A DNA stretch of 64,000 bases from a virus. The DNA lies in the IMG/VR virus record IMGVR_UViG_3300031472_000015, positions 16,574 to 80,573 of that record; one strand, written 5' to 3'. A program made the translations under genes and the position numbers. The first letter of the stretch is position 1. Each line of letters starts with the position of its first letter. The notes below the pieces were generated by a model. That model searched no databases. It saw only the letters and a program-made list of their open reading frames with translations, and was not told the origin of the DNA. Shown piece by piece: positions 6,452 through 62,632 of this stretch.

Positions 6452-6469
6452 CACGAGGGGCTATCATCC

Positions 6470-9400: not shown

Positions 9401-9481
9401 GCCTACCTGCAAGCCAAGCGCGGGGCGGCCAACCCAGGCGCGTCCACCAGCGCGAACGCCGCGGCATCCTCGGGTTTCTAG
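6470..9481 (+). CDS. 1003-aa multidomain protein: PT linker, LamG-like, divergent GH16-like and second LamG-like domains
   Basis: GRYAEMTWTWPGG...WLTFWGF...LEGDWPD...HRMGIDW...FVIDG follows the GH16 beta-jelly-roll pattern; (PT)n linker near the N-terminus. Confidence 0.65.
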   Translation: MSIINPQPAQGTLGTSTSFVVSDSTGQQTATPTQVGVLLGITVAPAATTPTPTPTTPGPTPTPTTPTTPTTAFSLVTAGNPMPDLLLALDPALPASTASLVTGTPGIQVDTNKNVLALIEPVNGYPCGHGYGETMLVASGPGGFPVFHSTPAGYNQTYDAIVLPYEVGTKLFGAPNAGAYVAFVLKQTAAGANALLQVWGANGNVNVIGASGASDGALRVEQNNGGAVGSEPTSSATALNQLQILELIFDPNKKTIAVWRNGSLTLETPPGYIGNIGALSRFEVLNDGRADVSCALFGSTIPTVAQQNAVRAFLAARYAITVTTSTPAVVNPPATTPGALADYPQIYRQPSGPIFKDTTQVPFGVTLVNPASNVQWLKMGRLVSDANIKSQADLFSQVYTRNANAIDSPSYYPNQGENGFDAVYRDYPEGDPRNLHVIKDDCMALILRTLVVGQTSSYRFEMGFMRLLEHLTKGRYAEMTWTWPGGDFDTIVGQLISWLTFWGFSNYQEPLTKNVYIGQPSLEGDWPDNFKEDHAQLGDSYNTGYVLYGNYLKDAQGNYYPDPSVYGNPRNLYLSNTPPFVGGRNGRVYVTDPAMKPHTGKHRMGIDWRLDDTWVFVIDGVPVRKLHIAYPAVFGSGGSYVGQGNPPPAAMNGKPVPLNIEIGHQSQARFNPDTYAKMIANNDTTNPLRAELRIYSIGVWDSNTTVEPPTSTPIPALPAPQTGAALGDLPAITSGTYLLNIDAGKPNPVSDQLGLNTVFAVNNLYVPTDQINGLGTIHLDGDDNNPAGLAVRGPAVGQAQGAGQVVLFVVLKDANPYADSHPQVLAQFSRITPQTDQNTNRITLSMSSFGAGASCQAFGTHGGNYGACIAGSDGHYATASAGGCNFGQTEIITLTKSLAGDGTVVVGSGYGGQQNLPASGGGVPPANISGLTELTIGCARDYDGFATWGALGLLGQVIEVGVAAGGSLSATDYTAIVAYLQAKRGAANPGASTSANAAASSGF

Positions 9482-9534
9482 CCGGGAGCACGGGGGCGCC
9501 GGCCCCCGCTGCTCCCACCCCGCCCGCCCCCGGC
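9472..9534 (+). promoter_or_regulatory. Putative programmed -1 ribosomal frameshift signal
   Basis: In-phase X XXY YYZ heptamer G GGT TTC (9472-9478) just before TAG; 5-nt spacer; 14-bp hairpin 9484-9516; loop could pair with CCGGC at 9530-9534. Confidence 0.75.
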
Positions 9535-32084: not shown

Positions 32085-32780
32085 ATGCTCCCTATCCCGC
32101 CCGCCGCCCTGGCGCTGGTGTCCGCCCTCGTGATGGACGAAGAGGTTTATGCAGCGAAGCCGTACTACGATGAGATCGGCAAGATTTGGAGCCAGGGTTA
32201 TGGTTTCACATTCACACCGAGCGGCGGCCCAATCAATGCGTACAGCCCACCGCTAACCCAAGTCGCGTGCCAGGCGCTGCTGACGAACAAGCTGCTGGCA
32301 ACCTACCTACCGCCGGTCATTGCGGAGTGCGGCTGGCCCCTGACCAACGGGCAGCTTGCCGGCCTCGGATCGCTTTGCTGGAACTGCGGCCCTGGCGCGA
32401 TCAGGAACAGCATCATCCCGAATCTGGCGCGTGCTGGCGTTTGGGCTGGGGTCCAGGCCGCCATGCAGCAGTTCACACATGACCATGTCGGCCATATCGT
32501 GCCGGACCTGGTTGGTCGCCGCCGCCGTGAAGGATTGATCCTGATGGGGGTCACGTTCCTGCCCGGCAAGCGCACTGGCGAGGTATTGGGCACGCCGACA
32601 CGCCCACCCGTGCTAGCTGTGCAGGCGCATCCGTATGCAGCTCCGCAGTTGCAGCCCCGTCCGGCGCTGGCCGCAGCGCGCGCCGTGGTGTCGCCCGCGC
32701 AGTCCGTCGCGCCCGCGCCGCAGTCGGAAGCCGATGCCTTGATGGCCGGTGAACTTCACAACCTCGGAGTGCCGACATGA
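32085..32780 (+). CDS. Endolysin, GH24 lysozyme family, with Pro/Ala-rich C-terminal tail
   Basis: EE.YAAKPYYD.IGKIWSQGYG (E-D-T triad with Ser), LCWNCGPGA, LVGRRRRE. Confidence 0.85.
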   Translation: MLPIPPAALALVSALVMDEEVYAAKPYYDEIGKIWSQGYGFTFTPSGGPINAYSPPLTQVACQALLTNKLLATYLPPVIAECGWPLTNGQLAGLGSLCWNCGPGAIRNSIIPNLARAGVWAGVQAAMQQFTHDHVGHIVPDLVGRRRREGLILMGVTFLPGKRTGEVLGTPTRPPVLAVQAHPYAAPQLQPRPALAAARAVVSPAQSVAPAPQSEADALMAGELHNLGVPT

Positions 32781-33364: not shown

Positions 33365-33919
33365 ATGAACCCACTCGCACGGCTGCGCCTGCCCGCCCTG
33401 TTTCGCCGGTCGCCGCCGGCAACGCTCACGAACGCCCCTGCGGTGAGCGACACCCCCGCCAAAGGACACCTCATGAGCGACACCTCCGCCGAACTGATGC
33501 CGACCGCGCTGGATTTCCTGACCAAGATGGCCGACACGCTGCAAGCCGAGCGGAAGGCGCGGAAAGTGGCCGAGATGCAGATCGCCACGCTCATGGGGCG
33601 CGAAGCCGTGATGAAGCAGCTCATGACCGACGTTTTGCGGGCGCATGAGGACGATGGGGGCGTTGTGACGCCGCCTGTGGCGCTGACCGCACCAACTGTC
33701 GGCGGCGGTGCGGGAGGGATTGCGGCACCCATGCCGGCTGCTCTGCCTGACGTTACTTACACCGTTCATCTGCCCGACGCGGCGCCGGTCGGGCTAGAGA
33801 TGGCACTGCATCCGCCGGTGGGGGTGCCGACCGTGGAGAGCGTGATCCCGACGCCGCCCGTCGTCGCTGCGCCGACCGTGCTGCCGGTGGGGGCGAATGC
33901 GGATGGGATGGTGGGATGA
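33365..33919 (+). CDS. Hypothetical coiled-coil/Pro-rich protein
   Basis: 184-aa ORF co-directional with the lysis genes. Confidence 0.5.
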   Translation: MNPLARLRLPALFRRSPPATLTNAPAVSDTPAKGHLMSDTSAELMPTALDFLTKMADTLQAERKARKVAEMQIATLMGREAVMKQLMTDVLRAHEDDGGVVTPPVALTAPTVGGGAGGIAAPMPAALPDVTYTVHLPDAAPVGLEMALHPPVGVPTVESVIPTPPVVAAPTVLPVGANADGMVG

Positions 33920-33943
33920 CTACTCTGGAGTTAGTAATCTCAA

Positions 33944-35740
33944 CTATTGTTTATTCCCGCTGACCGGATCAGTACCGTCATCAGTTTGTGGAAGCGGCAT
34001 CCACCAGTAAACTGGATGCACATGAACGGTATGGCCATAGCCTTCGTTGGTTCTCCACCACATGCCCCCTCTCCAAGAGCCATCATAAATACATGCCGGT
34101 CGCCCAGCGCATATAATAACAGATTCAAACTCGGGAGGCAGTTGTTCGCTTGGTTTAAAAGTGTCCCGTGGCAATGTTCCACCGCGCTTTTCTACTACCA
34201 TCTCATCGGCAACTTGCATGCATTCTGGATGCCAGTCGGCAGGCGGCTTTCCTGCTCTAACATGACATCGACAGCATAAGTAATTGTCATCTTGGCAATG
34301 CATTGCTGGTCTGCCGCATACCCAGCACTTTGTTTCAAATGGCTCTTGGTTGGTGGATTGAGCGAGATTCATGGCTAAACTTTCAGAGGTTGAGATTAGT
34401 AATCTGGCCTGCGAACGAACACGGATGGGACGGTGCCGGGGAGTGCTTCGGGGTTAGGCTGCCCCCTCAATCCCTGATCACGACAAGAATTGATGCAGGC
34501 GGAATTACACGGTTAAAGTCTAACTCGACCGTATCGGCATCCAGGATCGTCAGTATTAGATCCAGGTCAAAGCAAAGACCATATGGCGGTGCGTTCACGT
34601 AAGACTCTATGATCACGTGGCTGGTCCCAAGCCCATGCCGCACGCGATACACGCCGGTTGTGCCGCCGCCGATGACTTCGCGGTATTGGGAAGCCTGATC
34701 GTCGGCCGCCATCACCCGTCCCCGCCGTCGCCAGCCCACGCCGTCGCGACGTGCCGATCCCGTTCCCACCGCTGCATCTCCAACTCAACCATCCACGCCT
34801 GCCATTCCGCCTCGCCGTTCGGCGCGCGCCGTTCCTTGGCTCGCTGGACCTGCTTGAGACAAGCTTCTATCTCCGATCGGTTCTTGGCGCAAAGTGCGGA
34901 TTGCAGCCCGATCTCCATGCCCAACCGGTAACTCGGCGTGTGGAACGTGTCATCGGTCATCTCACTGCCCCTCCAACGCAGCGCGGCCGGCGGGGGTAAT
35001 GTGGACGGCAGGGACACCCTTATCGCCGGTCTTGATTATCGGATGGTCGCACGTCTCAATCCACTTCTCGTTCAGCGCCTTGCGCGCCCTTGGCACATCG
35101 CCGTTTGCCTGGACGGTCAGTTGCAGGAACGCACCGTCGCCGTCTGTGGCTCGGCAGATGCGGTCAAGCATAGCGCGGGTCGCGGGCGCCAGCTTGGTGG
35201 CGCTCATGGGTTGGCTCCTAATGCGGCGCGACCAGCGTCGGTCGTGGCAGCATCTTCCGCAGCTTCATCCCTAGCTTGCATCAGATCAGCCATCGCTGCG
35301 GCGATCGCTCGGCCTAGAGCTTCAATACAGCAAGTCATCTCGTAGATTTCCGTATATGAAACGGGACCGCTCAGCCCATTGTTAACATTAATATCTTTCA
35401 GTCTATGGGTAAGGTCGCCCGCTGCCTCCGCAGCACTCCTAAAGTGCTCTGGCGTGTTTGCGACGATGCTTGTGCGCTTGTACCTGTTCGGATGATTCAC
35501 CACGGCCTAGCACTCCCGAGCGGATTTGAGGGTAAGCCTGAAAGCTACCTCGTCCTGCTCAATGTCGCCCTTCGCGCCAATTTCATCTGCGTAGTTATTA
35601 GCAACCTGAACGCAGAGCTTGATGAGACGCAGGCGAGCAACACCTTCTACGGTGTCTACTGCCTCATCCATGTTGTCGTAGCAGTCCTTGAGGTCTTCCA
35701 GCGTGTTGCTGTGCCGGCAGTGGTTCATGTTGGCCATCAT
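33944..35740 (-). CDS. Antisense operon of six small genes: DUF551-like 33944-34372, 34467-34712, 34712-34960, 34962-35207, 35204-35503, 35507-35740
   Basis: Coupled ORFs; WWMPLP motif; MANMNHCRHSNTLEDLKDC phage-type N-terminus; VRHGLGTSHV motif. Confidence 0.6.
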
Positions 35741-35777
35741 CTATCTCTGCCCCTGGATGTCCGAGGCGCGGCAACTG

Positions 35778-35869
35778 GTTTGCCTCGGAAGGGGGTCGGG
35801 TTTGCCTCCCAGGCAAACCTACTCTAGTTTGCCTCAGGCTGGCAAACAATAGGCAAACCGATGGCAAAC
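35778..35869. repeat. Seven GGCAAAC/GTTTGCC heptamers (operator or centromere-like array)
   Basis: GTTTGCC at 35778, 35800, 35827; GGCAAAC at 35812, 35841, 35852, 35863; further copies at 36219, 36254, 36265, 36981, 37164. Confidence 0.85.
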
Positions 35870-36301
35870 CCGGAAAACTTACAAGACGCTGCCCCATGGA
35901 CGATCAAGAACGTAGGGGTGCGAACCCGGAAGATCGCAACCGACTGCGCCGCCCGCGAGGACATGACGATGGGGCAGTGGATGGACCGCATGGTGCCGAT
36001 GATGGCGACGATTCAGGAGGGCAACCAAGTGCTTCCACCTGACCAACGTGGGACAGCGCCACCGTCCGCGCACGCCGTCACCATGATGGAAGTGGAGCGC
36101 ATGGACGCCCTCTCCCGCTTGATGACAGCGGTCGCCAGCGCCGCTGCGGCCGGGGTGCCGAAGCGGGCTGTGGGAGAGATAGCCGCCCTGGCACGCGAGC
36201 AGGGCCGGCTTGCGCGCGGTTTGCCTGCCTTAGCGCCACCAAGCAAACCGGAGGGCAAACGCAAGGCAAACCCGGCGGACCCACGGCTGATTGAGGGCTG
36301 A
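35861..36301 (+). CDS. Ribbon-helix-helix protein, plasmid partition/centromere-binding type
   Basis: PWTIKNVGVRTRKIATDCAAREDMTMGQWMDRMV RHH pattern; heptamers overlap its start and its 3' end. Confidence 0.65.
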   Translation: MANPENLQDAAPWTIKNVGVRTRKIATDCAAREDMTMGQWMDRMVPMMATIQEGNQVLPPDQRGTAPPSAHAVTMMEVERMDALSRLMTAVASAAAAGVPKRAVGEIAALAREQGRLARGLPALAPPSKPEGKRKANPADPRLIEG

Positions 36302-36304
36302 TGG

Positions 36305-36769
36305 CTACATCTGGCAGCGCCCAGCAACCCGCGCCATCCGCTCCGCCACCAACGCCCGATGCGCCTCAGTGACCACCGGCAGCAACGCAAGCTGCTGTGC
36401 CACGGAGCGCACCTGACCGCTTCCTATCCTTGAACTTACTGGCCGTCCGTCCCCCTGATGCATCCGGCGGACGCAGGGCGCGGGCGGCAACATCGTTTGG
36501 TAAGCGCACGGCTTATCGCGGCGTAGGTTGCCCGCGTAGACCGGCTGCCGCTCCCACTCTAGCAGGCCGAGGCGCTTCCCGGCCCGCTTAGCGCGGGTGA
36601 CGGTGGATCGGGATACGCCGGCCTCGCTGGCAAGGCGGGCCTCCGACGGTTCCGTATCGCCCTGGAGGGCCAGCCGCCCCAGCACATCAAGCACGCGCGC
36701 CTGGTCGCCGGAGATGTTGCGGTTGCGGCGCTCAAGATCCACGCGGTCCAGCCATACGCGGTCAAACAT
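36305..36769 (-). CDS. HTH protein resembling plasmid replication initiators
   Basis: PSEARLASEAGVSRSTVTRAKRAGKRLGLLEW winged-HTH; C-terminal RSVAQQLALL; GGAG RBS. Confidence 0.55.
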   Translation of the reverse strand: MFDRVWLDRVDLERRNRNISGDQARVLDVLGRLALQGDTEPSEARLASEAGVSRSTVTRAKRAGKRLGLLEWERQPVYAGNLRRDKPCAYQTMLPPAPCVRRMHQGDGRPVSSRIGSGQVRSVAQQLALLPVVTEAHRALVAERMARVAGRCQM

Positions 36770-36896
36770 GGGTCAGCTCCACAAGGGGCCGACGAACAAG
36801 CATAGCGAGGGCGTTGCCCGGTTGGGGGTTGTTTTCACGCGCTCACTATGGTCTGGTGATAGCTGCCCCTCGCAAGGCTTCCATCATCAGCTTACC

Positions 36897-36930
36897 GAAG
36901 GTCGTCCCGCTGCCAGGCAGGGCGACCTTC
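36897..36930. other. Strong GC hairpin upstream of the rep-like gene
   Basis: gaaggtcg...cgaccttc plus an inner stem. Confidence 0.5.
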
Positions 36931-37277
36931 GCTGTTCATGGGCTAGTTCATCGGACACTCCGAACTCACGGGGATCGTGAGGTTTGCCAGCGTGGCACGG
37001 AGTCCGGCGTGGGGGAAGCCGTTGCGCGCCCACACAATCAAGGCAAGCTGGTCGTCACCTTGGTAAAGTCTGCCCGGTCACGATCTAGGCTGGCATCCGT
37101 TTCGTCCGCTAAGATTTATTTTCGCCCCCTATCTGTATGATCCGCCTCATGCTCGCCCCCGCCGGCAAACACCGGTGGGGAGCAGATTACGTGAGGCAAC
37201 AGGTCACCCGTTGGGAGCATTTCAGGCGAGGCAATGCGATGCGCGTGGTGGCGGGTGCTACATAGTGCCGCTTACCA

Positions 37278-37472
37278 GCGAGCACCGGCATCATCCTGAC
37301 CTCAGTTCCGCCATTGGCACGGATTGTGAGCACAACCCTTGGTTGGCGAGCACGACACGATGATGGCGAGCACAGTGGCAGATAATGTGAGCACGAGGCC
37401 CGCCCCATTGTCAGCGAATCCGAGCAGAAATCCGCTCCGTTTGCGAGCACGACGTCCGATGATTGCGAGCGG
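37278..37472 (+). repeat. Iteron-like GYGAGCAC repeats
   Basis: Copies at 37278, 37326, 37346, 37366, 37387, 37443 and a degenerate copy near 37465; core spacing 20/20/21 bp. Confidence 0.8.
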
Positions 37473-37546
37473 CTACACCTATCCGGCCTCGCAATGTTCT
37501 TCCAGATACACCAGGAATCGTTCAACCAAGGAGGGATGCGGGGCGG

Positions 37547-38080
37547 TCATGGCGCGGCTCCAGCCGGCGGGGCTGGCATGGGCCGCCAATGCGTCGGGTC
37601 CTGATCGGTTAGGAACCCGAACCCGTCCCCGTGCCAGTGGGTGCCGCGCGTCCATCCCGGGCCGCCCACCAGCACCCGCGTTCCATCCTGCGGGGCCGTC
37701 GCAATCGGTTGCCAGCCCTCCCCCGCTTGCACAGCGGCGATGGCGGCGCGCACGATGTCACACAGCGCTTTCGTGGTCGCCTCTGTGCTGCCTGTCAAGC
37801 GTTCCCACTTGGCGCAGTGCGCGGCATCCCAATAGCCGTCGTGATGAAAAACCAGCACGGCTTGCAACGCATTCTCCACGCCGGGCTGCTGCGGCCGGAC
37901 GACCTGGCGTAACTCCATCAGCTCGTCCAGGATCACGAGCATGGACCTGCGCTCCACCATGATCAGCGCTTCTGGACTGGCGCCGGTTGGGCCAGCGCAG
38001 AGGGCGCGCAGTTCCAGCAGGCGAGCGTTCGTGGGGTGGTCGGCGGGAGATTGCTCCCCCGCTGGGATCGGCGCGGTCAT
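37547..38080 (-). CDS. DUF551-like phage protein
   Basis: WQPIATAPQDGTRVLV...PTHWRPMPAPP. Confidence 0.7.
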   Translation of the reverse strand: MTAPIPAGEQSPADHPTNARLLELRALCAGPTGASPEALIMVERRSMLVILDELMELRQVVRPQQPGVENALQAVLVFHHDGYWDAAHCAKWERLTGSTEATTKALCDIVRAAIAAVQAGEGWQPIATAPQDGTRVLVGGPGWTRGTHWHGDGFGFLTDQDPTHWRPMPAPPAGAAP

Positions 38081-38508
38081 GCTGCTTTCCGATCATCGAT
38101 GTGATACGCCGCATGACAGGGGACACACATCCAGGGGATGGCAAGTGGTAAATCATAATTATCGTGGTGGGCTGTCACCGGCTTCTCCTCACGACAAGTT
38201 TGACAACGTGTAGGTTTTGCAAGCAAGCCGTCTCTCAAAGCGTTACTAACGGCTATATGCGCCGCCCGCTTCTTAGGATTACGAACTGCCCAAGCTTTAG
38301 AACTAGCACGAAGCTTGATTTTTCCTGCTTCTGTTGATTTATATGCAACTCGCGCTGCCACGCGATCAAGCGCGTTTGCTCGTTTCTGGTCACAGTCACT
38401 CTGACAGATTTTGCAACGTGCAACCAGCCCATCAGGACTGGCTGCACGCTTATGAAAAAAATTTGCTGGATATGTCATCTGGCAAATTCTGCATAACTTA
38501 ACTTGCAT
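38077..38508 (-). CDS. Zn-finger/HNH-like protein
   Basis: CRIC...CKIC; CQTC...HHDNYDLPLAIPWMCVPCH. Confidence 0.7.
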   Translation of the reverse strand: MQVKLCRICQMTYPANFFHKRAASPDGLVARCKICQSDCDQKRANALDRVAARVAYKSTEAGKIKLRASSKAWAVRNPKKRAAHIAVSNALRDGLLAKPTRCQTCREEKPVTAHHDNYDLPLAIPWMCVPCHAAYHIDDRKAA

Positions 38509-38520
38509 TTTTGACTATTC

Positions 38521-39000
38521 CTAAAAGGGTATTTCGTCGTCCAGATCAGCATCTACTGCAACCGACTGACGCGACGGCGGTGCAGCAGCACGACGCGAAG
38601 GCATCGCGGTGCTGGCCTGCTGCTTCGACGGATCAAGATAATAAGCAACCTTGTTCTTTGGCTCATAGCCAGGGTTGACATCCTTGGCGATCTTGCAGCG
38701 ACCACTGGCGTGCAGGATGTCACTTGGTCCAAACTCACCAGTATCATACTGCTGCAACAGTCCGACCGCAGCAGCAAAACCGCGTATCTTCCGCAGGCCA
38801 CCATCGCTGGAAACGAGGTAGTCCCGCACGGTGCGGGAACCGCCATCGCCGTCATGCACCTTTAAGCTCAAAACCATCATTTCATTTCCGGATGTTTTGC
38901 TGATTGCATCCTCTACATCCGCAACTTCAAAATCATAGTCGCCATTCGGCAACAAGCCACCTTCGGCGATTTCTTCAGCACTCTTAGGAGGAAACTTCAT
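38521..39000 (-). CDS. DUF669-like ssDNA-binding protein
   Basis: LLPNGDYDFEV...SGNEMMVL; acidic DDEIPF C-terminus. Confidence 0.75.
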   Translation of the reverse strand: MKFPPKSAEEIAEGGLLPNGDYDFEVADVEDAISKTSGNEMMVLSLKVHDGDGGSRTVRDYLVSSDGGLRKIRGFAAAVGLLQQYDTGEFGPSDILHASGRCKIAKDVNPGYEPKNKVAYYLDPSKQQASTAMPSRRAAAPPSRQSVAVDADLDDEIPF

Positions 39001-39009
39001 CTTACATTC

Positions 39010-39591
39010 CTAAAGAAGACGCCCATTCTCTTGGGCAAAAGTTATAGGGTCTTTCGCATACTTCCGCTGATTGCAAGGCTGGCAAAGTAGCTTGAGATTA
39101 CGCACGTCATTGTGGCCACCAAGGGCAATAGGCATCCAGTGATCTATATGAAAACCCTGGCGTATAGACTTGAAACAGACTGCACAACAATATTTCTGCT
39201 TAATCTGCAAAGCAGAAATATCAGCGGCGGTGTATGTTCCTCTTGCCTTCTTGATCCTGGCACGTCGATTGCCCTTATGAACCACCCGGGCCAGCGGATT
39301 ACGCTTGTGCCAGTCCTGACAGGCTTTGCGGCTTCTATCCGAATGCAAGGCATACCAGTCTCGGTTCTTTTGCTGATAGATGGCAGGGGCTTTCCAGTAT
39401 CGCTCACGGGCGTAAGACCTAGAGTGATCACGGTTTTTATTGTGCCATATCGCAGCATTGCGATTTTGACATTCAGAACAGTTGCCAGTGCTCACGTAGC
39501 GTTCCGCAAAATGTCCAGCAGGACAGGGCTTACCCGTGAAATACCGGACAAGACCCAAGGCCGCAGCAACCGCGCGAGCGCCAGCAGGCAT
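39010..39591 (-). CDS. HNH homing endonuclease
   Basis: RYFTGKPCPAGH; CAVC...HIDHWMPIALGGHNDVRNLKLLCQPCN. Confidence 0.9.
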   Translation of the reverse strand: MPAGARAVAAALGLVRYFTGKPCPAGHFAERYVSTGNCSECQNRNAAIWHNKNRDHSRSYARERYWKAPAIYQQKNRDWYALHSDRSRKACQDWHKRNPLARVVHKGNRRARIKKARGTYTAADISALQIKQKYCCAVCFKSIRQGFHIDHWMPIALGGHNDVRNLKLLCQPCNQRKYAKDPITFAQENGRLL

Positions 39592-40505
39592 TAGACCTCT
39601 ACTCCCTTCAATTTGTCGTTTAGCAGCTCAAGCACTTTGCTGGCGTGATCGACGGACATCTCGGCAAACGTCGCAGCTTGTGCCTTTGTGAGCATCTTCT
39701 CAGTCCAGCCATCTGGCATCTTCACCACCGTAAGAAGACGTTCAATTTCCGCTACGTCCGCAGTAGCAGCCAGTTGGATCGAAACCGCTGCGTTCTCCAT
39801 CACATCGCGGCCATATCGACCAGCAAACTCTTCATAAGTCCAAGGAAACCGCTCATTGTCAGGGAACCCAAGTAACCGAGTCTTGCGGACTTGGGCATAA
39901 CGGCTGTTGCCTTCCTTTAGAATATGTAAGCACAGGTGCAGTTCATAAGCAGTGCGATCCCAAGCATCAAACGTAGCACCGATCTGCTCACGCTGGCCCT
40001 TATTGTTTAGACCCCATTCTGCCATCTCATGAGCAATCAGAATCACGTTCATATCAAGCCTGTTCAGCCACGCAATCAGACGGCGCATGAGCGAAATTGC
40101 CTGCTTCTTGTCAGCACCAAAAGCATTCTTATCGCCAAGTCGCTCAGCTTCCAGAGTGATGGCAGTTTGGAACATCTTGGAAATGCTGTCAATAACCAAA
40201 GTCCGGTATGGATGTTCCTCGGTAGCAAGTGCCTGGACTTGACCAATCACAGTTTCGAAATCAAGGCTTCCCTGGTCTGGCCCGAAATAGACACCGCCAG
40301 CTTTTTCCAAACGATCTGTATAATGCGGTAGATTAGCACCTCCTTCGGTGTCTATGAAATAAGGCGTAGGCCACGTAACAGCAGCCCAGGTCTTGCCGAC
40401 CCCAGGCTTGCCGAACACCAGGATTTTCGGCTTGCTGGGCGCTGCTGCCTTAGGCGCAACAGCCTTTAGTTTTGACTTCGGCGCAGGCTTCGTGATTGCG
40501 TTCAT
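39591..40505 (-). CDS. AAA ATPase (Sak4-like recombination protein)
   Basis: LVFGKPGVGKT Walker A, IDTEGG, LVIDSIS Walker B, ILIAHE. Confidence 0.85.
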   Translation of the reverse strand: MNAITKPAPKSKLKAVAPKAAAPSKPKILVFGKPGVGKTWAAVTWPTPYFIDTEGGANLPHYTDRLEKAGGVYFGPDQGSLDFETVIGQVQALATEEHPYRTLVIDSISKMFQTAITLEAERLGDKNAFGADKKQAISLMRRLIAWLNRLDMNVILIAHEMAEWGLNNKGQREQIGATFDAWDRTAYELHLCLHILKEGNSRYAQVRKTRLLGFPDNERFPWTYEEFAGRYGRDVMENAAVSIQLAATADVAEIERLLTVVKMPDGWTEKMLTKAQAATFAEMSVDHASKVLELLNDKLKGVEV

Positions 40506-40506
40506 G

Positions 40507-42126
40507 TCAGTTTGCCTTTCGTTGTGTGTTCGCAGCCTGCAACTCCCGCAGTGCCACCTCCGCCGCAGCAATATTCGGAAACGGGCCGATCTTCTGTTCA
40601 GGCATGACAAAGATCAGCCAGCATCGGTTGTTGAGGTCCACGCTCACGCGCCACTCGCCCTGGCTCAAAGCAGCACCAGCATGTCAAGCTGCGGATTGCG
40701 GCGCTGATCAGCACGGCGAAGTGCAGCCCATGCCCTGATCGCGTCGGCTAGGGCGTCCGCCTGGTCCGGCGTGGGGTCTAGCGGCACTGCCTGCATGGCA
40801 GGGTAGGCGTCGGGGTCAGACGAGGCACTGAACAGCGTCCAGCCGTCGCGCTCCAGGAGCAGGCTGCCAGTGTGCGCAGCGCCTGAAAACACAATCTCAA
40901 TCATCGCGTCGCCCTCCGCATCCCCAAAAACGGAAGAACATTGTTCCTTGACTGCGAAGCCAACATCTCACGCATGACAGAAGCTCCTTCCAAAAGTTGC
41001 GCGAGCACAGCGGCCTCGGTGGCTGTCAGGCTGACAGGATCGCCTATGGCTTTGTCGCGCATGATCGCGGCGGCGCGGGCGTATTTGCAGGCTGGGACGG
41101 GCATAGCTATACAAACTCCTTTGGCGCTGCACCCGGCTCCAGCGTGTCGGGGTCAATCCATTCGATGAAGCCAAGCCGGCCCATGACGCGGGTCAGTTGT
41201 CCACCGCCCGTCGTCTTTAGGTGCCCATGGCAGACGATCTCTTGGTCTACGATTGACCCTTTGTGACAAAGAAAGTCCGTATCCTTCCGAACTGTATCCC
41301 GTATGATCTGTGCAGTTCTCTTGTTTGGCACAATGCGATTTTTAGAATACAAGCACTGGCCGCACTGACGGGCCATCACTTTGTGCTTGCTCATACTCAG
41401 GACTCCATCGGTGGGTGCTCAGCGCGCATCGGGCGCCGCAGCCAGCTTTCGATTGCGGACAGGATCAGAGCACGGGGCATCAGTGGGGCCTCCCTTGCGG
41501 CAGTTCGCCGTCGCCAAGGTCAAGCGGCGATCCGTTGTTGGTGACCGTCACGCCCGGCAGGCTGCCCAGCGTGCGCATCAGGGTTATCAGGGCAGCTTCG
41601 CGCTCCATGGGCGGCAGCGCATTCAGCACCATCATCGGCAACAGGCAAATCGCCAGGACGGCCTGCTGCTCCCGGTGCTTCGCATTGGGCAGGGCGTCGA
41701 TGGTGCGGCAGAGGGCCAGCAACGCCGCCTGCATCTCGGCGTCCTCGGGATCGTCGTCCAGGTCGTCGGTCGCAATCGGGCCGATCATGATACCGCCCCC
41801 TCAATCAACGCCAGCCCATGCGCCGCCGCGGCCAGCACGTCGGCCGCCTCGAAGCACCCGGCCGTCCGCAAGGCCGTGCGGATGCGCCGGGCTTGGCGCA
41901 CGTCCTGCTCCATGAGCCGGGTGGTGCAGACGTTGAACTCCGGGTGCTCAGCGATGAACTCCGCGTGGTGGCGCACCATGCGGACGTGCCACGCATGGGT
42001 TTCCGCGAGCAGCGCTGCCACATCGTCGGGCAGGCCGACGCGCTCCGCCGGCGGCATGACGGGGCAGGGGGCCGGCGGCGCAGGCATGTGCACCGCGATG
42101 CGGGCGAACTCGGCGGCGGTAATCAT
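40507..42126 (-). CDS. Six small early-left hypothetical genes (40507-40668, 40665-40904, 40901-41104, 41107-41394, 41480-41788, 41785-42126)
   Basis: Coupled minus-strand ORFs; 41107-41394 has CGQC..FLCH..VCHG. Confidence 0.55.
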
Positions 42127-43182: not shown

Positions 43183-43616
43183 GCTGTGGTCTCCGCTGTC
43201 TGCGCTTCGGGCACGCCGCGCCCATCCGATGCTGCCAAGGCAAGCAGAATTGGGCCATGCGCGTCCCAGAACCGCCGCGACGCCCTGCCATCCATGCGGG
43301 CGATCTGGGCATTGTCGAATGCCGCCCAATCAGCCAACGAGTGCAACTCGCAGCCAATTTGCATGTGCTGGTCGAGGATCGTGACGGGGTAGGCCAGTCC
43401 GTAAAGCTGCAGTGGGCGGTGGTTGAGGATGATGCCGTTGCGCCACTTGGCGCCGGCCAGGTTGGCGCCGGCCAGGTAGGCGCCGGCCAGGTAGGCGCCG
43501 GCCAGATTGGCGCCGGCACTCACTGCCGCGGTTACGGCATCCCGTAGCGAGGCATGCTCGCTGCTGAACAGAATGCCATTGTTCCAGCGGTGTTTGATCT
43601 CAATGAGATTGCTCAT
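43179..43616 (-). CDS. Pentapeptide-repeat protein
   Basis: IEIKHRW..GILF, A(N/Y)LAG x4; 15-bp DNA tandem repeats at about 43450-43517. Confidence 0.85.
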   Translation of the reverse strand: MSNLIEIKHRWNNGILFSSEHASLRDAVTAAVSAGANLAGAYLAGAYLAGANLAGAKWRNGIILNHRPLQLYGLAYPVTILDQHMQIGCELHSLADWAAFDNAQIARMDGRASRRFWDAHGPILLALAASDGRGVPEAQTAETTA

Positions 43617-48211: not shown

Positions 48212-49884
48212 TGCGCGCCCAGCCGCAAACAGACTATTGGAACGCCGCAATGCCGCCAGCAGACCGGCAGGCCTTGCGCGATGCCTGGCAGGCGTATCGC
48301 TCGTGCCGCGACTGCAAGCATTGGGCGCATGAAGCCGGTCATCACGCAGGCTGCTGCGAGGCAGCTTACGAGCCTGGCGTACCAGCGTCGTTGATGACAC
48401 CAGAGGATTACACCTGCGATGATTTCGTTGCAGGTGACGGGACACTCGACGCATGACCCGCCGCTCCCAGCAGCGCACGAAGGCCAGCGACCCGCGTTTC
48501 GTCTGGCCCATCAGCGCCTCGCTCCCGCCCGTGCACAAGCCCGACGCGCCCCCGCCGGTCTGGACGGGCACGTTGTCGCTCAACCCAGGTGCCCACGTCG
48601 GCGGTACGCTGTCCCATGGCGGTTGGACGCTCGGGCTGCAAGGCGTGGTCCAGGACCCGGCACAGGGCGGCATGCTGTGCCTACGCGGCACGGTGATGAC
48701 GCGCGGGCTGGTGGCGCTGCCGTTCGAGGACTTCGGCCTGACCGCCGAGATGACGCAGCGCGCGGCGCACGGATCCTGGCTGCTCATGATGGAACGCAAC
48801 GGCGACGGGTTCCTGGGGACCGTCTGCGGAACTGGCTGGCACCTGGCCGTCCAGGGCACGCCGTTCCAGCCGGGGCGGCTGCGGCTGCGCGGCGTGGTGG
48901 GGGCGGCATGACCGACGATGCAATCAAACCAGCGCCAGAGGCAGACATCACCGTGAACGGGCACCGCCTGACAACGGCGCAGTCGATGACCGTCCGGGTC
49001 GCGCTTGGCAACTTCGCCATGACCCTTCGCGAGCAGGGCGAACCGCAGCCGGGGTCGATTGAGAGCAGCTATCTCCAGCGGATCAGCGAAGTCATGAGGG
49101 CGATGGCATGATCCGCGCCCTGGGCACGCCCGGCAACGTCGTGCCGCGCTCCAATCCCGAGCGCGACGCCCTCGCTGCCGTGCGCGGCCTGCTGCGCATA
49201 GCGCCGATGCGCGAGCCGAGCGCGTTCGTGCTGGCCGTGCTGAGCCTCAGCGAATTGGACCGCGCCGGGGTCGTAGTGGAGCGCGCATGACCCGCCCATC
49301 CGATGAGGAACGCGCCGCGAGATACGAGCAGTATCGCCTGGAACTCATTGTCGCAGATCGGGACCGCTGCAAGGCCCTGCTGGACGCGGCTGAAACACGA
49401 CTGGGGGTCGCATTGGAGCAAGCGGCGCGCGGCGATCTGGTCACGGGCTACTGCAAGGACCAAGCCGGATGACCGGGCATGGCGCCTTGATCGGGCTCGG
49501 CGATCTGAGGTATGCTGCAAGGTGTTGCGCCCACATGGCGCGGCGGGGACCGGCGGCGCTGGAGGCGCCAACCGATCCCCTGACGGCTACGGTGCTGGAG
49601 GCACACATGACCGCTCTTCGCCACGATATCGCACGCCCAGCGTGCGACTGCAATTCCGTTTTCTGTGTGTGCTCGTGAGCGCGTCTGATCGCATCCATCG
49701 CGCACGGAACACGCGCGAAGCCGCGGGACGCGCTTACCTGTTGGCGCTGCACGCTTCCATCGCGGCTGGCGAACCGCTGTATGAGCTGGCGCGCGATCAT
49801 ATGGCCTGGGATCGGGCCGCATCGCAGGTCATAGAGGTTTGCGGGACCGTGGGTGTGGATGCGCCGATGGTGTTGACTGCATGA
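48211..49884 (+). CDS. Seven small coupled hypothetical genes
   Basis: 48211-48456, 48453-48911, 48908-49111, 49108-49290, 49287-49472, 49469-49678, 49675-49884; overlapping start/stop codons. Confidence 0.55.
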
Positions 49885-52484
49885 ACGCCACCGCATCGCC
49901 AGTTGACTTCGCCGCCGTCGCTCGGTTGGCCCTGTCGCAATCGTTGGACCTGCTCACCCGCTGGTTCCCGGCCGGCAAGAAAGTGCAACGCGAGTATGTC
50001 ATCGGCAACCTCGCTGGCGACGCCGGCGATAGCCTGTCCATCAACACGCAGACGGGCCGCTGGGCCGACTTCGCCGCCAATGCGGCTGGCGGCGACCTCG
50101 TAAGCCTGTATGCCGCCATCCATCGCCTGTCGCAATCCGAAGCAGCCCGAAGGCTGGCAGCGGAGCTAGGACAACCAATGGAGGCGCGCACCTCTCGCGC
50201 AGTCCCACCGCGCACCTTGCAGCCGGTCCTGGCCGCTGCGGCGGAGCAGTGGACGCCCGTCCTGCCAATCCCGGAGGATGCACCCGCGCCACCACCTTCG
50301 CACCCCGCGCATGGACGCCCAACGCACGTTGCGACTTACCGCAACCGGGACGGCTTGCCCCTTGGACTGATCTATCGCTGCGAGCCGAAGGGCAAGCGCA
50401 AGCAGGTGATGCCGCTGACCTGGTGCGTCCACACCGATGGGCATCACGCTTGGCAATGGAAGTCCCTGCCCAAGCCCCGCAGCCTCTACGGCGCCGAGCT
50501 GCTGGACGCGGCACCAGCCGCAACGGTGCTGGTGGTGGAAGGCGAGGGCAAGTGCGAAGCCGGCCGGCGCCTGCTGGGCAGCCGCATGACGGTGGTCGCT
50601 TGGCCGGGCGGTGCCAATGCCACCGGCACAGCCGATTGGTCGCTGCTCCGGGACCGCAAGGTGATCGTTTGGCCTGATGCGGACAAGCCTGGCGCTGATG
50701 CCGCGACGGCTATCGTGCGGGCCGTCAAGGCGTTCGGCGCGAATGCCCGCATCGCGGCTCCTCCTGTCTACGTGGCGGACGGCTGGGACCTGGCCGACGC
50801 CGAACATGAGGGCTGGACTGCGGAGCAAGTCATGGATCATCTCGGCCTCACCAGTACGCCCCGGGTGACGCCGCTTGTTCGCCGGTCCGCCAACCTCGAT
50901 GCCATCCGCGTCGTCAAAGGGGAGGCAGACCTGGCCGCATCGGCTGGCGAGGATGCGTTGCTGGCCTCGAAAATGCCCGTGTTCCGGCGGGACAAGCTGC
51001 TTGTGCAGCCAGTTTCGCAGAAGGTGCCGGCCAGCGGCGGGCGGATGACTATCGCCGCAGGGCTGGACACCATCGGGCTGTTCGGCCTGATCGACCTGCT
51101 GTGCCAGGCCGTCGAGTGGGTCAAGTACGACAAGCGGGACGAGAAGTGGAAGCCGATCAATCCGCCGGCCGACGTGACCAGCATCATCCTCTCCCGCGCC
51201 GCCAAGTCGCGCCTGCCGAGCATCGCAGGCGTCATCACCACGCCCACGCTCCGGCCGGACGGCTCCCTGCTGCTGGAGGCGGGTTATGACGAGGCAACCC
51301 GCCTTTACCACATCCAGGACACCGCACTGCGCTTGCCGACCCTGCCGGAGCGGCCGACCAAGGCCAATGCCCTGGAGGCCCTGGCCGACCTTGATGCGCT
51401 GCTGATCGGCTTCCCGTTCTCGGACGACCCGCGGTACGACAAGGCCGGCGTCGCCCTGCCTGTCCAGCACATCTCCAAGGCGGTGGCGTTGTCGGGCATC
51501 ATCACGGCTGTCGTGCGCGGCGCCTTGTCTGTCGCACCCATGCACGCCTTCAAGGCCAGCACCGCCGGCAGCGGCAAGTCGTACCTCGTGGACCTTGCCA
51601 GCCTGATCAGCACCGGGCGGCCCTGCCCGGTCACGTCCGCTGCACCCGACGACCAGGCCGAGACGGAGAAGCGGCTCGTTGGCTTGCTACTGGCCGGCTA
51701 CCCGATCATCAGCCTGGACAACGTGAACGGCGAAATCGGCGGCGACCTGCTGTGCCAGGCCATCGAACGCCCGCTGGTGCGGGTCCGCGGCCTCGGCCAC
51801 TCCACGATCACCGAGATTGAATCGCGCGCTTCCCTGTTCGCCACCGGCAATGCCTTGCGGGTGCGCGGCGACATGACCCGGCGAACGCTAATCGGCTCGC
51901 TTGATGCCGGCATGGAACGGCCGGAGACGCGGGAGTTTGCGACCGATCCCGCCGCCGAAGTGCTGGGCGACCGGGGCCGCTACGTCGCCGCCTGCCTCAC
52001 CATCGTTCGGGCCTACCTTGCAGCAGGCAAGCCGTCCCAATTGACGCCTCTGGCCTCGTTTGAGGAGTGGTCGGATTGGGTGCGTGGCGCCCTGGTATGG
52101 CTCGGCTGTGCCGATCCGGCACTGTCCATGGAGGGCGCGCGCGAGGACGATCCCGAGCTGTCGGACCTGAAAGAGCTGGTGTCGGCGTGGCGCGACTCTC
52201 TGGCACTCAACGACGGCTACACGCTTCGTGAAGTTGACACCATCTCAAACGAGAAGTCTTGGAGTGAAGATGGAACCAGGCACACAGACGAGTTGAAGCA
52301 TCCAGACTTGCGAGTTGTTCTGATGAAGATAGCTGGAGAACGCGGCGTGATGAATACTAAGAGGCTGGCCCGCTATTTCATGGATCGAGAGGGAAGGATA
52401 GCGAATGGACTTCGGATCAAACGCAAGGGCACTGGCCAAGGTGGGATATTGAACTGGAGCGTTGAAGATGTCTCGAAACGCTAG
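49881..52484 (+). CDS. Primase-helicase (TOPRIM primase + P-loop SF3-like helicase)
   Basis: GRWADFA...GGDLVSL; LYG.E.L; VLVVEGEGKCEA, WPDAD..G; GSGKSYL, LDNV, ATGN. Confidence 0.85.
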   Translation: MNATASPVDFAAVARLALSQSLDLLTRWFPAGKKVQREYVIGNLAGDAGDSLSINTQTGRWADFAANAAGGDLVSLYAAIHRLSQSEAARRLAAELGQPMEARTSRAVPPRTLQPVLAAAAEQWTPVLPIPEDAPAPPPSHPAHGRPTHVATYRNRDGLPLGLIYRCEPKGKRKQVMPLTWCVHTDGHHAWQWKSLPKPRSLYGAELLDAAPAATVLVVEGEGKCEAGRRLLGSRMTVVAWPGGANATGTADWSLLRDRKVIVWPDADKPGADAATAIVRAVKAFGANARIAAPPVYVADGWDLADAEHEGWTAEQVMDHLGLTSTPRVTPLVRRSANLDAIRVVKGEADLAASAGEDALLASKMPVFRRDKLLVQPVSQKVPASGGRMTIAAGLDTIGLFGLIDLLCQAVEWVKYDKRDEKWKPINPPADVTSIILSRAAKSRLPSIAGVITTPTLRPDGSLLLEAGYDEATRLYHIQDTALRLPTLPERPTKANALEALADLDALLIGFPFSDDPRYDKAGVALPVQHISKAVALSGIITAVVRGALSVAPMHAFKASTAGSGKSYLVDLASLISTGRPCPVTSAAPDDQAETEKRLVGLLLAGYPIISLDNVNGEIGGDLLCQAIERPLVRVRGLGHSTITEIESRASLFATGNALRVRGDMTRRTLIGSLDAGMERPETREFATDPAAEVLGDRGRYVAACLTIVRAYLAAGKPSQLTPLASFEEWSDWVRGALVWLGCADPALSMEGAREDDPELSDLKELVSAWRDSLALNDGYTLREVDTISNEKSWSEDGTRHTDELKHPDLRVVLMKIAGERGVMNTKRLARYFMDREGRIANGLRIKRKGTGQGGILNWSVEDVSKR

Positions 52485-52487
52485 GAC

Positions 52488-52592
52488 GGTGGCTTCGGTG
52501 GCTTCGGTGGCTTTGCTCAATCCCCCGCGTATGGAGATCGTTCTTCACATGGGGTGGTTAAAACTAAGCCACCAAAGCCACCAAAGCCACCC
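52488..52592. repeat. 3x GGTGGCTT(C/T) facing 3x AAGCCACC(A/C): putative replication origin
   Basis: 9-bp tandem triplets at 52488-52514 and 52566-52592 in inverted orientation with a 51-bp spacer, just after the primase stop. Confidence 0.75.
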
Positions 52593-52715
52593 AAGGGAAG
52601 ATAGGGGAGCCTTCGCATGTTCCGCGACGTGACGGCCAAAGGCGACAAGTTGGCACGCATCCGGGGACAACCCCGTGCCGCAGCGCGCGGTGGTGACGGA
52701 TCGGGGAGAACGAGT

Positions 52716-57162: not shown

Positions 57163-57801
57163 ATGTCTAAGCCATGCGTCAAATGTGGTGGCGTGGACCG
57201 TTATGAAAAAACGGGCGGATGTAAAGTTTGCGCGCGCCGAAGAAGCTCCGTCCAGAATGCGATGCGTCAGGTCGTGAGAGCACCTAAACTTGATCTAGCA
57301 GCAAAGTTGTGCGTCAAGTGCGGAAAGCTTGACAGATACGACAATGGCAAGTGCCGCTCTTGTGCTCTAGTCAGAAAGGTAAGACTAAAGGTACTTCATC
57401 CAGAAAAGATCAAAGAGTATAACGCTAACTTCTATCAACGCTATTCTGAGCGAATCAAGGCACGGCAAAAGGAGTGGGTTGCCAATCACCCTGACTATAA
57501 CTGGAAAAAGCAAAATCCTGAAAAATATATGGCTGGGCGACACAAATATATTGAAAGAAATAGAAACAGAATTAAAGTGAGACGTGCTGCGCAGGGTAAG
57601 CTCTATTATGCCAAGAACAGACTTGCAATTATTGCCAAGACTAAGGCATGGAAAATTGCAAATCCAGAGAAACACGCTGCAATGGATTGGAAACGTTACA
57701 ACCAGAACGGAATTGTTAAAAGGCGGCGGAATCGGTTGCTCGTCAACCTTCTTAGCTTACAAAACCTGCAACGCAAGATCATTATAGAGGTTTTTAAATG
57801 A
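57163..57801 (+). CDS. Basic Zn-finger protein resembling an HNH endonuclease N-terminus without the nuclease domain
   Basis: Two CVKCG..DRY...G.C..C repeats and W...NPEK repeats; AT-rich; no HNH motif before the stop. Confidence 0.55.
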   Translation: MSKPCVKCGGVDRYEKTGGCKVCARRRSSVQNAMRQVVRAPKLDLAAKLCVKCGKLDRYDNGKCRSCALVRKVRLKVLHPEKIKEYNANFYQRYSERIKARQKEWVANHPDYNWKKQNPEKYMAGRHKYIERNRNRIKVRRAAQGKLYYAKNRLAIIAKTKAWKIANPEKHAAMDWKRYNQNGIVKRRRNRLLVNLLSLQNLQRKIIIEVFK

Positions 57802-60680: not shown

Positions 60681-61388
60681 ATGCCATCAGATCACAAGAA
60701 GCGACGACGCCGCATTCCCAAGCCCCTTCTGAGCTTCACGTCCAACATTCCGTGGCGTGGGCGGAAGGACGACGAGCCGATGCTGGTCGGCTATGTGCGG
60801 GTTTCCACTGACACTCAGACTAACCAGCGGCAGGTTGATGAGCTAGTGCAGGCCGGCGTCTCGCCCATCGACATCTTCGGAGATGAAGCCAGTGGCGCAA
60901 CGATGGAGCGCCCTGGCTGGGCAGCATGCGGGCGCGAGCTGCGGGAGGGCGACACGCTCGTCATCTATTCACTAGACCGGCTTTCCCGCGATCTCGTCCA
61001 CACCATGACAACGCTGCGGGCACTTAACGATCGGAACGTGACCGTGAGGGTCCTCACGATGGACTTTGACAGCCGCACTCCAATGGGACGTTTCGTGTTC
61101 AGCATGATGGCCGGGTTCGCGCAGTTTGAGCGGGACATCATCCTGGAGCGGACCCGACACGGGTTGGCGAAGGCTCGGGAGCGCGGCCGGTTTGGTGGCG
61201 CAGTCCAGAAGTACACTGATGAGGCCATCGAACGCGCCTACAAGCGGGCTGGCACGATACCAAGCGCAGCCAAGCTACTGAAGTGCAGCGAGCCAACGAT
61301 CAAGCGAGGGTTGGCTAGGATCAGGGCGAAAGAGGATGCCGAGAAGCCGAAGCGCGAGGAGGCGCAGGGCGATGCCGATCAGGGCTGA
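60681..61388 (+). CDS. Serine recombinase (resolvase/invertase) with C-terminal HTH
   Basis: GYVRVST..Q...Q; SGATMERPG; DRLSRD; AQFERDIILERT..GL..AR.RG..GG. Confidence 0.93.
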   Translation: MPSDHKKRRRRIPKPLLSFTSNIPWRGRKDDEPMLVGYVRVSTDTQTNQRQVDELVQAGVSPIDIFGDEASGATMERPGWAACGRELREGDTLVIYSLDRLSRDLVHTMTTLRALNDRNVTVRVLTMDFDSRTPMGRFVFSMMAGFAQFERDIILERTRHGLAKARERGRFGGAVQKYTDEAIERAYKRAGTIPSAAKLLKCSEPTIKRGLARIRAKEDAEKPKREEAQGDADQG

Positions 61389-62245: not shown

Positions 62246-62632
62246 CTAGGCAGCGGTGCGGAAACTCTCAATCTCTTCGCCCGCCGCCTCGGCAGCCGTC
62301 AGCCAGAGAGGCTTGCGCCCCCGACCCGTCCAGGTCTGTCCGGTCGGCGACTGGAACTTGACCGCTCCGGGCTCCTTCGCGCTGGTGGCGCCAGCGGACC
62401 TCTTCGACGCGGCCGTCCCCTTGGTAGCCTGGGCAGGCGACCCGAAGAGTTGCGCTGCTGACAGCCCCACCGCAGCGGCCTTCTCCTCAAACTCAGCGAG
62501 CAACGCAGTCCGAGCAGTCTCAGTATTGGCCTTCATGCGGTTCTGAGCATAAGCGACCAGCCCTTGCAGATGGGCGTTGTCCAGGCGATCAAGCATGGCA
62601 ATCATAACCTCATTCGGTGGTGTCGCGGACAT
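62246..62632 (-). CDS. hns: H-NS family nucleoid-associated protein
   Basis: KFQSP.GQTWTGRGRKPLWL DNA-binding motif, N-terminal coiled coil. Confidence 0.9.
   Translation of the reverse strand: MSATPPNEVMIAMLDRLDNAHLQGLVAYAQNRMKANTETARTALLAEFEEKAAAVGLSAAQLFGSPAQATKGTAASKRSAGATSAKEPGAVKFQSPTGQTWTGRGRKPLWLTAAEAAGEEIESFRTAA

Follow-up and report, generated by a model that had tools for sequence, protein, structure and literature searches.

Ribbon-helix-helix (RHH) repressors that work through repeat arrays are known from P22 (Arc and Mnt) and from pSM19035, whose omega protein uses heptad repeats and works with delta. Primase-helicase replicons are found in N15, P4 and small plasmids. Together with P1 and SSU5, N15 is one of the described phage-plasmids (Pfeifer et al., 2021; PMC7969092). 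A 2025 review treats conjugation as an alternative transfer route and not as a phage-plasmid feature (PMC12282955). Insertion sequences of the IS481 family are bounded by 6-bp NCTAGN repeats, followed by an inward inverted repeat that begins with TGT (PMC6794481). Here these systems are compared with a stretch of viral DNA of 64,000 nucleotides (nt), called the window, which comprises bases 16574-80573 of IMG/VR record IMGVR_UViG_3300031472_000015. The region of interest, 35750-37500 of the window, had been read in an earlier note as a plasmid-type maintenance module (Rep, iterons and Par) in the place of an integrase. The viral record is 106,826 base pairs (bp) long, is classed as linear, comes from a rock metagenome and has a CheckV completeness of 100%. 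Coordinates refer to the window unless the record is named, related loci and contigs are labelled L0xx, and X1 and X2 are two rock metagenome runs from different studies.

In our judgment the region 35750-37500 is probably, though by no means certainly, a composite of a repressor gene with its arrays, a winged-helix regulator gene, a folded leader and a dead transposon, and not a Rep/iteron/Par replicon; replication would then proceed from 52487-52595. What the earlier note observed is largely real, its local interpretation is wrong in central parts, and its inference about the element as a whole is strengthened. An appealing but wrong origin call is thereby corrected, and a testable origin candidate beside a primase-helicase gene is offered instead.

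The repeats that had been described as iteron-like are genuine repeats, but they belong to a transposon end. Between 37278 and 37450 one strand carries four exact copies of GCGAGCAC and two of GTGAGCAC, approximately 20-22 bp apart, and one further exact copy occurs in the 64 kb. These repeats (37278-37470 as called) are held by the right arm (approximately 37311-37477) of a 344-bp, non-autonomous IS481-like element on the plus strand at 37134-37477. The element resembles a miniature inverted-repeat transposable element, has TGTA and TACA ends, and is flanked by a CCTATC duplication at 37128-37133 and 37478-37483. This arrangement fits the 6-bp duplication and the TGT rule of the IS481 family, and the chance of finding CCTATC paired with TGTA within the 290 bp available is estimated at approximately 3 in 10,000. 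The stretch 37311-37490 (about 175 nt) matches non-coding DNA at 72-81% identity on 71 plasmids, most of them from Sphingomonadaceae and Rhizobiaceae and many with 2-4 copies; the family is widespread on alphaproteobacterial plasmids. There the copies flank varied cargo in inverted orientation, two by two; their outer ends read TGTAG...CTACA and are bordered by perfect 6-bp duplications (CCTAGC in L006, CCTATC in L007 and GCTACG in L019). The cargo may be a small open reading frame (L006), BrnT/BrnA (L007), a SulP/USP block (L015) or a phosphite/phosphonate operon with resolvase, DDE and ATPase genes (L018), and L019 contains only genes for a DDE protein of 550 amino acids (aa) and an AAA ATPase of 325 aa. 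The DDE gene pairs with an AAA_22 ATPase gene; the best NCBIfam model for its product is IS481, which it matches with 68.5 bits where the cut-off is 224, and rve scores 25.9 against 32.6. The transposon copies span 7049-12167 in L019, 3242-12150 in L018, 3914-5164 in L007 and 922-1710 in L006.

No TniA/TniB-like gene and no matching transposase or ATPase gene was found in the record, and the window copy is thus non-autonomous; the record also holds no second, inverted copy of the transposon arm. Word depth in the metagenomes is raised in the bin of the element, to 927 against approximately 56 in X1 and to 399 against approximately 11 in X2, an over-representation of about 17-36 times. Logan contigs from both metagenomes stop at 37143 and restart at 37448, with loose ends at 37138, 37312 and 37481. 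Two results weigh against the transposon reading. The left arm is decayed and aligns weakly, though in register, with the left arm of another element (score 30, where the null gives 19.7 +/- 3), and neither an unoccupied site nor the left flank of the 344-bp element had an exact match in the metagenome contigs. Judged from sequence, the "iterons" are the right arm of a dead IS481-like transposon, whose subterminal transposase-binding repeats mimic iterons. Transposon ends with many subterminal repeats can pass for iterons in this way. A Mu-like transposable phage, an idea raised by the multi-repeat end, was rejected: there is no rve gene in the record, and the end lies inside the phage with phage genes on both sides.

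The candidate origin is found 15 kb further to the right, next to a gene for a Toprim primase/helicase-like replication protein of 881 aa (49839-52484, plus strand), recognised by its domain matches. N15 likewise has a replication protein of the primase-helicase type. The C-terminal 520 aa are 26-47% identical to PriCT-2, RepB-primase and primase-polymerase proteins of 6.5-47-kb plasmids, and this module is common to phages as well as small plasmids. Starting 3 nt past the primase stop codon, the candidate origin (52487-52595) consists of three 9-bp units CGGTGGCTT at 52487-52513 and, after a spacer of 52 bp, 3.3 near-exact reverse complements AAGCCACCA at 52566-52595, which differ from the exact reverse complement at one base. 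In L014 (543-570 and 694-721) and in L012 (4779-4889 and 4491-4516) the primase homologue is followed on its 3' side by the same layout, built from different units. For an initiator and its sites one would expect just such a layout, conserved while the repeat sequence changes. These inverted 9-bp repeat arrays are the most likely starting point of replication, as predicted from their sequence and placement, and a primase-helicase replicon with its origin just after its gene would drive replication of the element.

At the level of the whole element, the earlier note had seen no integrase in the window, and this holds for the 106.8-kb record. A six-frame profile search of the whole record found no tyrosine integrase (PF00589), large serine recombinase, rve/Mu-type transposase (PF00665) or S24 repressor (PF00717). 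The record has no att-like repeat either, and ARAGORN found no tRNA or tmRNA in the window, hence an att site of the tRNA type is not visible. The sole site-specific recombinase of the record is a small serine recombinase (resolvase) of 235 aa at 60681-61388 on the plus strand, which was correctly noted at the right end together with an H-NS-like gene (62246-62632, minus strand; by homology). Virion, packaging and lysis genes are all present. The tailed-phage set is of the contractile type, with sheath (DUF3383) and tape-measure-like genes upstream of the window and a baseplate protein (DUF2612) and beta-helix fibre proteins encoded inside it; among the lysis genes, 32085-32780 is approximately 76% identical in DNA to a lysozyme-family gene of L008. 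The major head gene lies at record bases 28-1173, and the terminase large subunit (103558-105198) and portal (105200-106762) genes lie at the right end of the record. With morphogenesis genes at both ends, the module appears to be split by the record ends, as in a permuted circle.

The mobilisation-like genes at the right end of the window are the edge of a full VirB/D4 type IV secretion system (T4SS) with a TrwC relaxase. The conjugation genes begin just past the window, with the early/replication genes on one side and the terminase/portal genes on the other, so that the block has phage genes on both flanks. Its relaxase, of 1430 aa, carries AAA_30 and Toprim domains. The mating-pair formation type T (MPF_T) set comprises a VirD4-type type IV coupling protein (T4CP; T4SS-DNA_transf/TraG-D_C), VirB11 (T2SSE), VirB10/TrbI, VirB9/CagX, VirB8, VirB6/TrbL, a VirB5-type protein (T4SS), VirB4 (CagE_TrbE_VirB) and an SLT transglycosylase, which makes a VirB1-B11-type set; VirB2 pilin gave a weak match only (TrbC). 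The relaxase, coupling protein, VirB4 and core channel genes of an MPF_T and MOBF conjugative element are therefore all encoded, and the T4SS set is complete-looking as predicted from its genes. The coupling protein (996 aa; record 88232-91222; L004 7733-10723, minus strand) has a LAGLIDADG_3 domain at residues 452-513, possibly an intein or the insertion of a homing endonuclease. The T4SS operon is headed by a gene for a 103-aa XRE/HTH_3 protein (record 101903-102869; L005 6904-7870), which immediately precedes the terminase gene and is divergent from a 135-aa gene. The protein is the sole HTH_3 protein in the record and may be a switch for transfer or late genes.

The proposal that the element is an integrase-less phage kept extrachromosomally, or a phage-plasmid cointegrate, is supported by gene content and comes out strengthened but unproven. 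It gains support from the lack of an integrase, recombinase or rve gene of the integrating kinds in a record rated complete, from the embedded T4SS, from the primase module shared with plasmids, and from the ParA/RHH or MazEF genes of relatives. As to circularity, the order of the head and terminase/portal genes fits a permuted circle, but no terminal repeat, circular overlap or long internal repeat was found in the record, and an exact-sequence look-up of the portal and head proteins for contigs that bridge the record ends gave no match. In fuller form, we tentatively propose a possible single replicon of approximately 107 kb, at once a contractile-tailed temperate phage, a plasmid that replicates from a primase-helicase origin and a conjugative element capable of its own transfer. 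An undescribed switch, made of an RHH-like repressor with looped heptamer arrays and a winged-helix regulator gated by a new structured RNA leader, would determine the carrier state of this replicon. Such an element would join virion and conjugation transfer, which are treated as alternatives for plasmids in the current review literature, and would do so with no recognisable partition or integration system.

Of the competing explanations, the one that survives best, although it is unlikely, holds that the record does not represent one functional replicon but is a prophage in a conjugative plasmid or in an integrative and conjugative element, or a phage-plasmid mis-join through shared repeats, and the missing integrase would then be uninformative on lifestyle. 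The lack of terminal overlap is in keeping with this, as are the assembly-breaking repeats in the genome and the composition of the T4SS block, where GC is 0.66 against 0.62-0.63 in the rest and GC at third codon positions (GC3) is also higher. These results weigh against a single replicon, and the higher GC of the T4SS block may stem from a recent fusion or an assembly join. Prophages on conjugative megaplasmids are known (PMC12934698). Against this stand the placement of phage genes on either side of the conjugation block within one contig, the opposite ends taken by the head and terminase/portal genes, the CheckV rating as complete, and the lack in the record of any integrase, att-like repeat or transposase able to have inserted a prophage. 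Both parts also occur together, in similar shares, in two independent rock metagenomes (0.96 and 0.48 for the phage stretch, 0.99 and 0.62 for the relaxase/T4CP stretch). This co-occurrence gives weak support to the phage-T4SS linkage. One of the runs is probably the source sample.

Within the composite region, the heptamer array that had been described beside an RHH gene is real and conserved, but the RHH assignment has no Pfam or PHROG match behind it and draws on the sequence pattern, a two-helix structure prediction and weak Atlas leads. The window contains 23 copies of GGCAAAC where 11.2 +/- 3.4 are expected; 12 of them lie within 35778-37170, and seven of these within 92 bp. The seven form operator array A (35778-35869), in the orientations -,-,+,-,+,+,+ with the last three sites 11 bp apart, and array A occupies a 120-bp divergent gap between the leftward gene 35507-35740 and the gene of a 146-aa protein (35861-36301, plus strand). 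Operator array B (36219-36271) lies in the 3' end of the latter gene and has GGCAAAC at 36219(-), 36254(+) and 36265(+) and AGCAAAC at 36243(+), with 11-bp spacing. The 146-aa protein has an N-terminal strand-helix-helix and a C-terminal helical hairpin; in its AlphaFold2 (AF2) monomer a short extended segment comes first and is followed by helices 20-32, 37-55, 70-96 and 101-118, with a predicted local distance difference test (pLDDT) score of 65. The Atlas leads (RHH_1, NikA-like and CopG) are weak, at 0.85-0.87 only, and the homodimer prediction, with a score of 0.31, fell below the mark and gives no verdict. Pfam, PHROG and NCBIfam returned zero matches for the protein, a result that weighs against the RHH fold. 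At its own promoter the gene has phased (11 bp) heptamer arrays of seven and four sites as in the RHH family, and binding to them is predicted.

Three close homologues of the 146-aa protein are known. In contigs L008-L011 a homologue approximately 80% identical in DNA stands in the same place, right after the lysis genes, and all seven sites of array A are retained with order and orientation unchanged. Toward its 3' end the gene likewise retains three phased sites, despite different encoded residues, which indicates that selection acts on the sites. In L012, L021 and L025 more distant homologues (29-32% identity) directly precede the winged-helix gene. Leftward from array A runs an operon of approximately six small genes (33944-35740, minus strand), of which 35507-35740 matches phrog_8760, and its synteny is the same in relatives. 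A sigma-70 promoter scan of the region found none, and the terminator-like matches are the heptamer palindromes themselves. In the closest relative, from X2, the segment 34996-36338 with small genes, array and RHH-like gene is swapped for 1321 unrelated bases, and the RHH cassette is thus exchangeable. Taken together, the GGCAAAC array is most likely the operator set of a 146-aa RHH-like repressor that would regulate its own gene and control the leftward operon, and the small genes of that operon are probably under RHH control. RHH-like oligomers on both phased sets would shut off the gene and the operon, possibly with a DNA loop over the 400 bp between arrays A and B.

The same arrangement might instead be a partition locus of type Ib/II, with the RHH-like protein as the centromere-binding protein, the two GGCAAAC arrays as the centromere and a motor ATPase that was lost or acts in trans; we regard this as distinctly unlikely. 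Phased short-repeat arrays flanking a gene do resemble centromeres of the parC/parH type, and in L013 and L024 the place convergent with the winged-helix gene is taken by ParA and a ParG-like RHH protein. However, ParA (PF01656) and ParB (PF02195) gave zero matches at E<=1 across the whole record, no Walker partition ATPase was recognised there, and tblastn searches of the record with the L013 ParA and with the L013 RHH protein returned nothing. The 146-aa protein is dissimilar to the latter and has its RHH-like motif at the N-terminus, whereas ParG-like proteins have it at the C-terminus. Array A also overlaps a divergent promoter region, so that autoregulation alone accounts for it, and the cassette is exchanged in the X2 relative. 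The Par half of the Rep/Par module that had been proposed for 35750-37500 thus finds no counterpart in the record, and the operator reading of the arrays is preferred.

The strong hairpin seen at this locus (36896-36931; -15 kcal/mol, z -3.75) was confirmed and is part of a larger structured leader of approximately 135-250 nt on the minus strand (36770-37040), upstream of the winged-helix gene. The leader was defined from alignments A5-A9 of the upstream regions of homologues and from a covariance model, R1, whose core is 36884-37018. Its parts are the unvarying block CGCCGGACTCCGTGCCA, a hairpin in which the ATCCC loop is fixed while the stem varies through compensatory substitutions, an enclosing stem, the second hairpin at 36896-36931, which is present in every sequence with a stem sequence that differs each time, and conserved blocks that reach into the ribosome-binding site. 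Over seven distinct sequences the share of paired cells is 96%, whereas slid controls give 29-48%; five pairs have changed on both sides, a count reached by 2 of 500 shuffles. Three G-U pairs favour the sense strand. With model R1 each locus yields a single copy, invariably in this position, and the record has no other; a search of Rfam at E<=1 with 35000-38500 gave no match. In L008-L010 the leader is kept, at 129 bits, though the downstream gene is unrelated. Its retention where that gene has been replaced argues that it acts in cis, as RNA, on expression of whatever gene fills the position, and it may be a cis-acting RNA that gates expression of the winged-helix slot. A tRNA-like element or an attP site had been considered and was rejected, as ARAGORN was negative and the covariation points to a folded single strand.

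An initiator role for the winged-helix protein, with the structured element upstream, and not the transposon repeats, as its origin (a single-strand initiation site or a primer-RNA site), would also explain why a covarying conserved element always adjoins this slot. The DnaD-like fold of the N-terminal domain (NTD) of the protein agrees with this, and the 10-kb circular L014 retains, apart from head genes, hardly more than the winged-helix gene, the primase and part of the element. Even so, L008-L010 keep the element beside an unrelated 154-aa protein, so that it does not depend on winged-helix specificity, its 3' end enters the ribosome-binding site as expected of a leader, and a classical iteron layout is present elsewhere, beside the primase-helicase gene. 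We consider this origin improbable, somewhat more so than the partition locus, and retain the interpretation of the element as a leader.

The winged-helix gene itself (154 aa; 36305-36769, minus strand) is convergent with the RHH-like gene, with stops 4 nt apart. It had been called a helix-turn-helix (HTH) Rep-like gene, and no Rep hallmark was recovered. AF2 models it as one winged helix together with a helix at the C-terminus (pLDDT 78). Its Pfam matches, of the GntR/HTH_36 type, fall below cut-off; 14 of the 54 family members match HTH_36, RP-C was matched once, and its PHROG replication-initiator matches (E 1.7e-3 and 5.8e-3) cover the HTH only. A profile search of 1.8 billion representatives gave 293 relatives of approximately 150-220 aa, and none of the best 150 of the 293 exceeds 297 aa. 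When the model was compared with known folds, DnaD-NTD came first (Z 8.4), Zur, TFE, PerR and MarR-type proteins lay within one Z unit, and the primosome DnaB-NTD (7.8) and RctB domain 1 (6.7) were also matched. Foldseek against the PDB gave nothing at E<=0.001 and weak rows for the pSK41-type RepA NTD. The modelled fold is as near to DnaD-NTD, pSK41 RepA-NTD and RctB domain 1 as to repressors, and the protein may have an initiator role. This weighs against a purely regulatory one. The roles proposed for both the RHH-like and the winged-helix proteins are deduced from position and conservation only.

In related elements the winged-helix gene always stands at the end of the early operon, beside a variable maintenance device. 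Its homologue is convergent with an RHH and ParA pair in L013 and L024 and is followed by MazE/PemK in L012, L021, L025 and L026. With neighbours that vary between ParA and RHH, MazEF, an integrase and the RHH cassette, the gene marks the maintenance slot of this group of elements, and its product would be a regulator of the maintenance or lysogeny state, as suggested by position and conservation. Several individual loci add to this picture. L023 (5156-6741) has a distant winged-helix homologue that overlaps a tyrosine integrase gene convergently, on a contig with pieces of a T7-type RNA polymerase gene. L014 is a circular contig of 10,025 bp (1-10080 with a 55-bp terminal overlap) that carries HK97-type capsid, S78 protease, portal, winged-helix and primase-helicase genes, has no integrase or partition genes, and resembles a satellite that forms capsids or a mini phage-plasmid. 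In L008-L010 the slot holds the unrelated 154-aa protein, of unknown family (L008 10849-11313), with conserved flanks, and in the closest relative from X2 the winged-helix gene has 2 differences in 459 nt and 37019 is joined to 37890. A palindrome at 36442-36479 is not better than shuffles. Searches by tblastn with the winged-helix protein against plasmids gave no match, and the RHH-like protein, the winged-helix protein and alignment A1 recovered no related loci from viral and genome contig collections. When 33900-40700 was compared by blastn with 50,697 phage records, two 156-nt matches only were returned, and no phage or plasmid record searched exceeds 46% identity to the portal protein.

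The AT-rich patch that had been placed at 37100-37140 exists, but it is 14 nt long (37110-37123), lies directly left of the transposon insertion site and is unremarkable: GC is 0.37 over 30 nt, the 1.4th percentile, and 0.43 over 40 nt and 0.57 over 100 nt are ordinary for the window. An AT-rich unwinding region of the kind found in iteron replicons was thus not recognised here. The AT-richest spot of the window lies at approximately 57480-57580 (GC 0.33 over 100 nt and 0.17 over 30 nt), among unannotated genes between the primase and resolvase genes. A further side observation is a 15-bp unit repeated 4.7 times in tandem (94% matches) at 43447-43517 in the early leftward region, where metagenome depth is raised in that bin. 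That the 154-aa HTH protein is a plasmid-type initiator, the GYGAGCAC repeats its iterons and the AT patch its unwinding element, together forming the origin in the plasmid (prophage) state, is very improbable: the weak PHROG matches, the HTH_36 and RP-C matches, the folds shared with DnaD, DnaB, RctB and RepA domains and the 20-22-bp repeat spacing favour it, but the repeats are column-for-column homologues of massively multicopy transposon ends on more than 70 plasmids, with their own termini and target duplication, no direct repeats were found in 36760-37140, relatives with the same winged-helix gene (L012, L013, L021, L024 and L025) lack the repeats, the X2 relative with its near-identical gene passes from 37019 to 37890, the protein has one winged helix in 154 aa with fold scores tied with ordinary repressors, and the patch is just 14 nt. 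No Rep_3, RepA or TrfA-type match was obtained in any protein scanned.

Placed beside the described systems, three things appear to be undescribed: an IS481-like family with 170-bp multi-repeat ends on alphaproteobacterial plasmids, the RHH/heptamer cassette, and a covarying leader that has no Rfam family. The element as a whole is like P1, N15 and SSU5 (Pfeifer et al., 2021; PMC7969092) in combining tailed-phage genes without an integrase and plasmid-type functions on one record. It differs from them in that it lacks ParA/ParB or SopA/SopB, a protelomerase and a Rep_3-type RepA with incC/incA iterons, and in that it has genes for a full T4SS and a relaxase. The transposon resembles IS481 and TnRErm46/ISRe46 (PMC6794481) in its 6-bp duplication with a CTA(G) core, its inward TGT inverted repeat, the existence of cargo forms and a DDE protein for which IS481 is the best model. 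In contrast to the IS481 family, its ends are approximately 170 bp long with 6-8 internal repeats, and in its autonomous copies the DDE gene is accompanied by an AAA_22 ATPase gene, frequently with a resolvase gene as well, as in Tn552/Tn5053-type elements. The DDE score is also far under the cut-off of the family, and the window copy is gene-less with a decayed left arm.

The 146-aa protein is like Arc, Mnt and omega in being a small, putatively RHH-type protein with 7-bp sites, both direct and inverted, that are phased by one turn and lie over promoters. Unlike them, it has no RHH profile match, carries a 90-aa helical C-terminal extension and has an array in the 3' end of its own gene, and its locus holds no partner ATPase and no recognisable antirepressor gene. 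The replication gene differs from those of known primase-helicase replicons in its N-terminal primase, which is of the Toprim type here and of other types on plasmids, and in the inverted 9-bp triplets 3' of the gene. It agrees with them in its overall plan, in which one large protein is both primase and helicase-like and a repeat-bearing origin candidate lies beside its gene.

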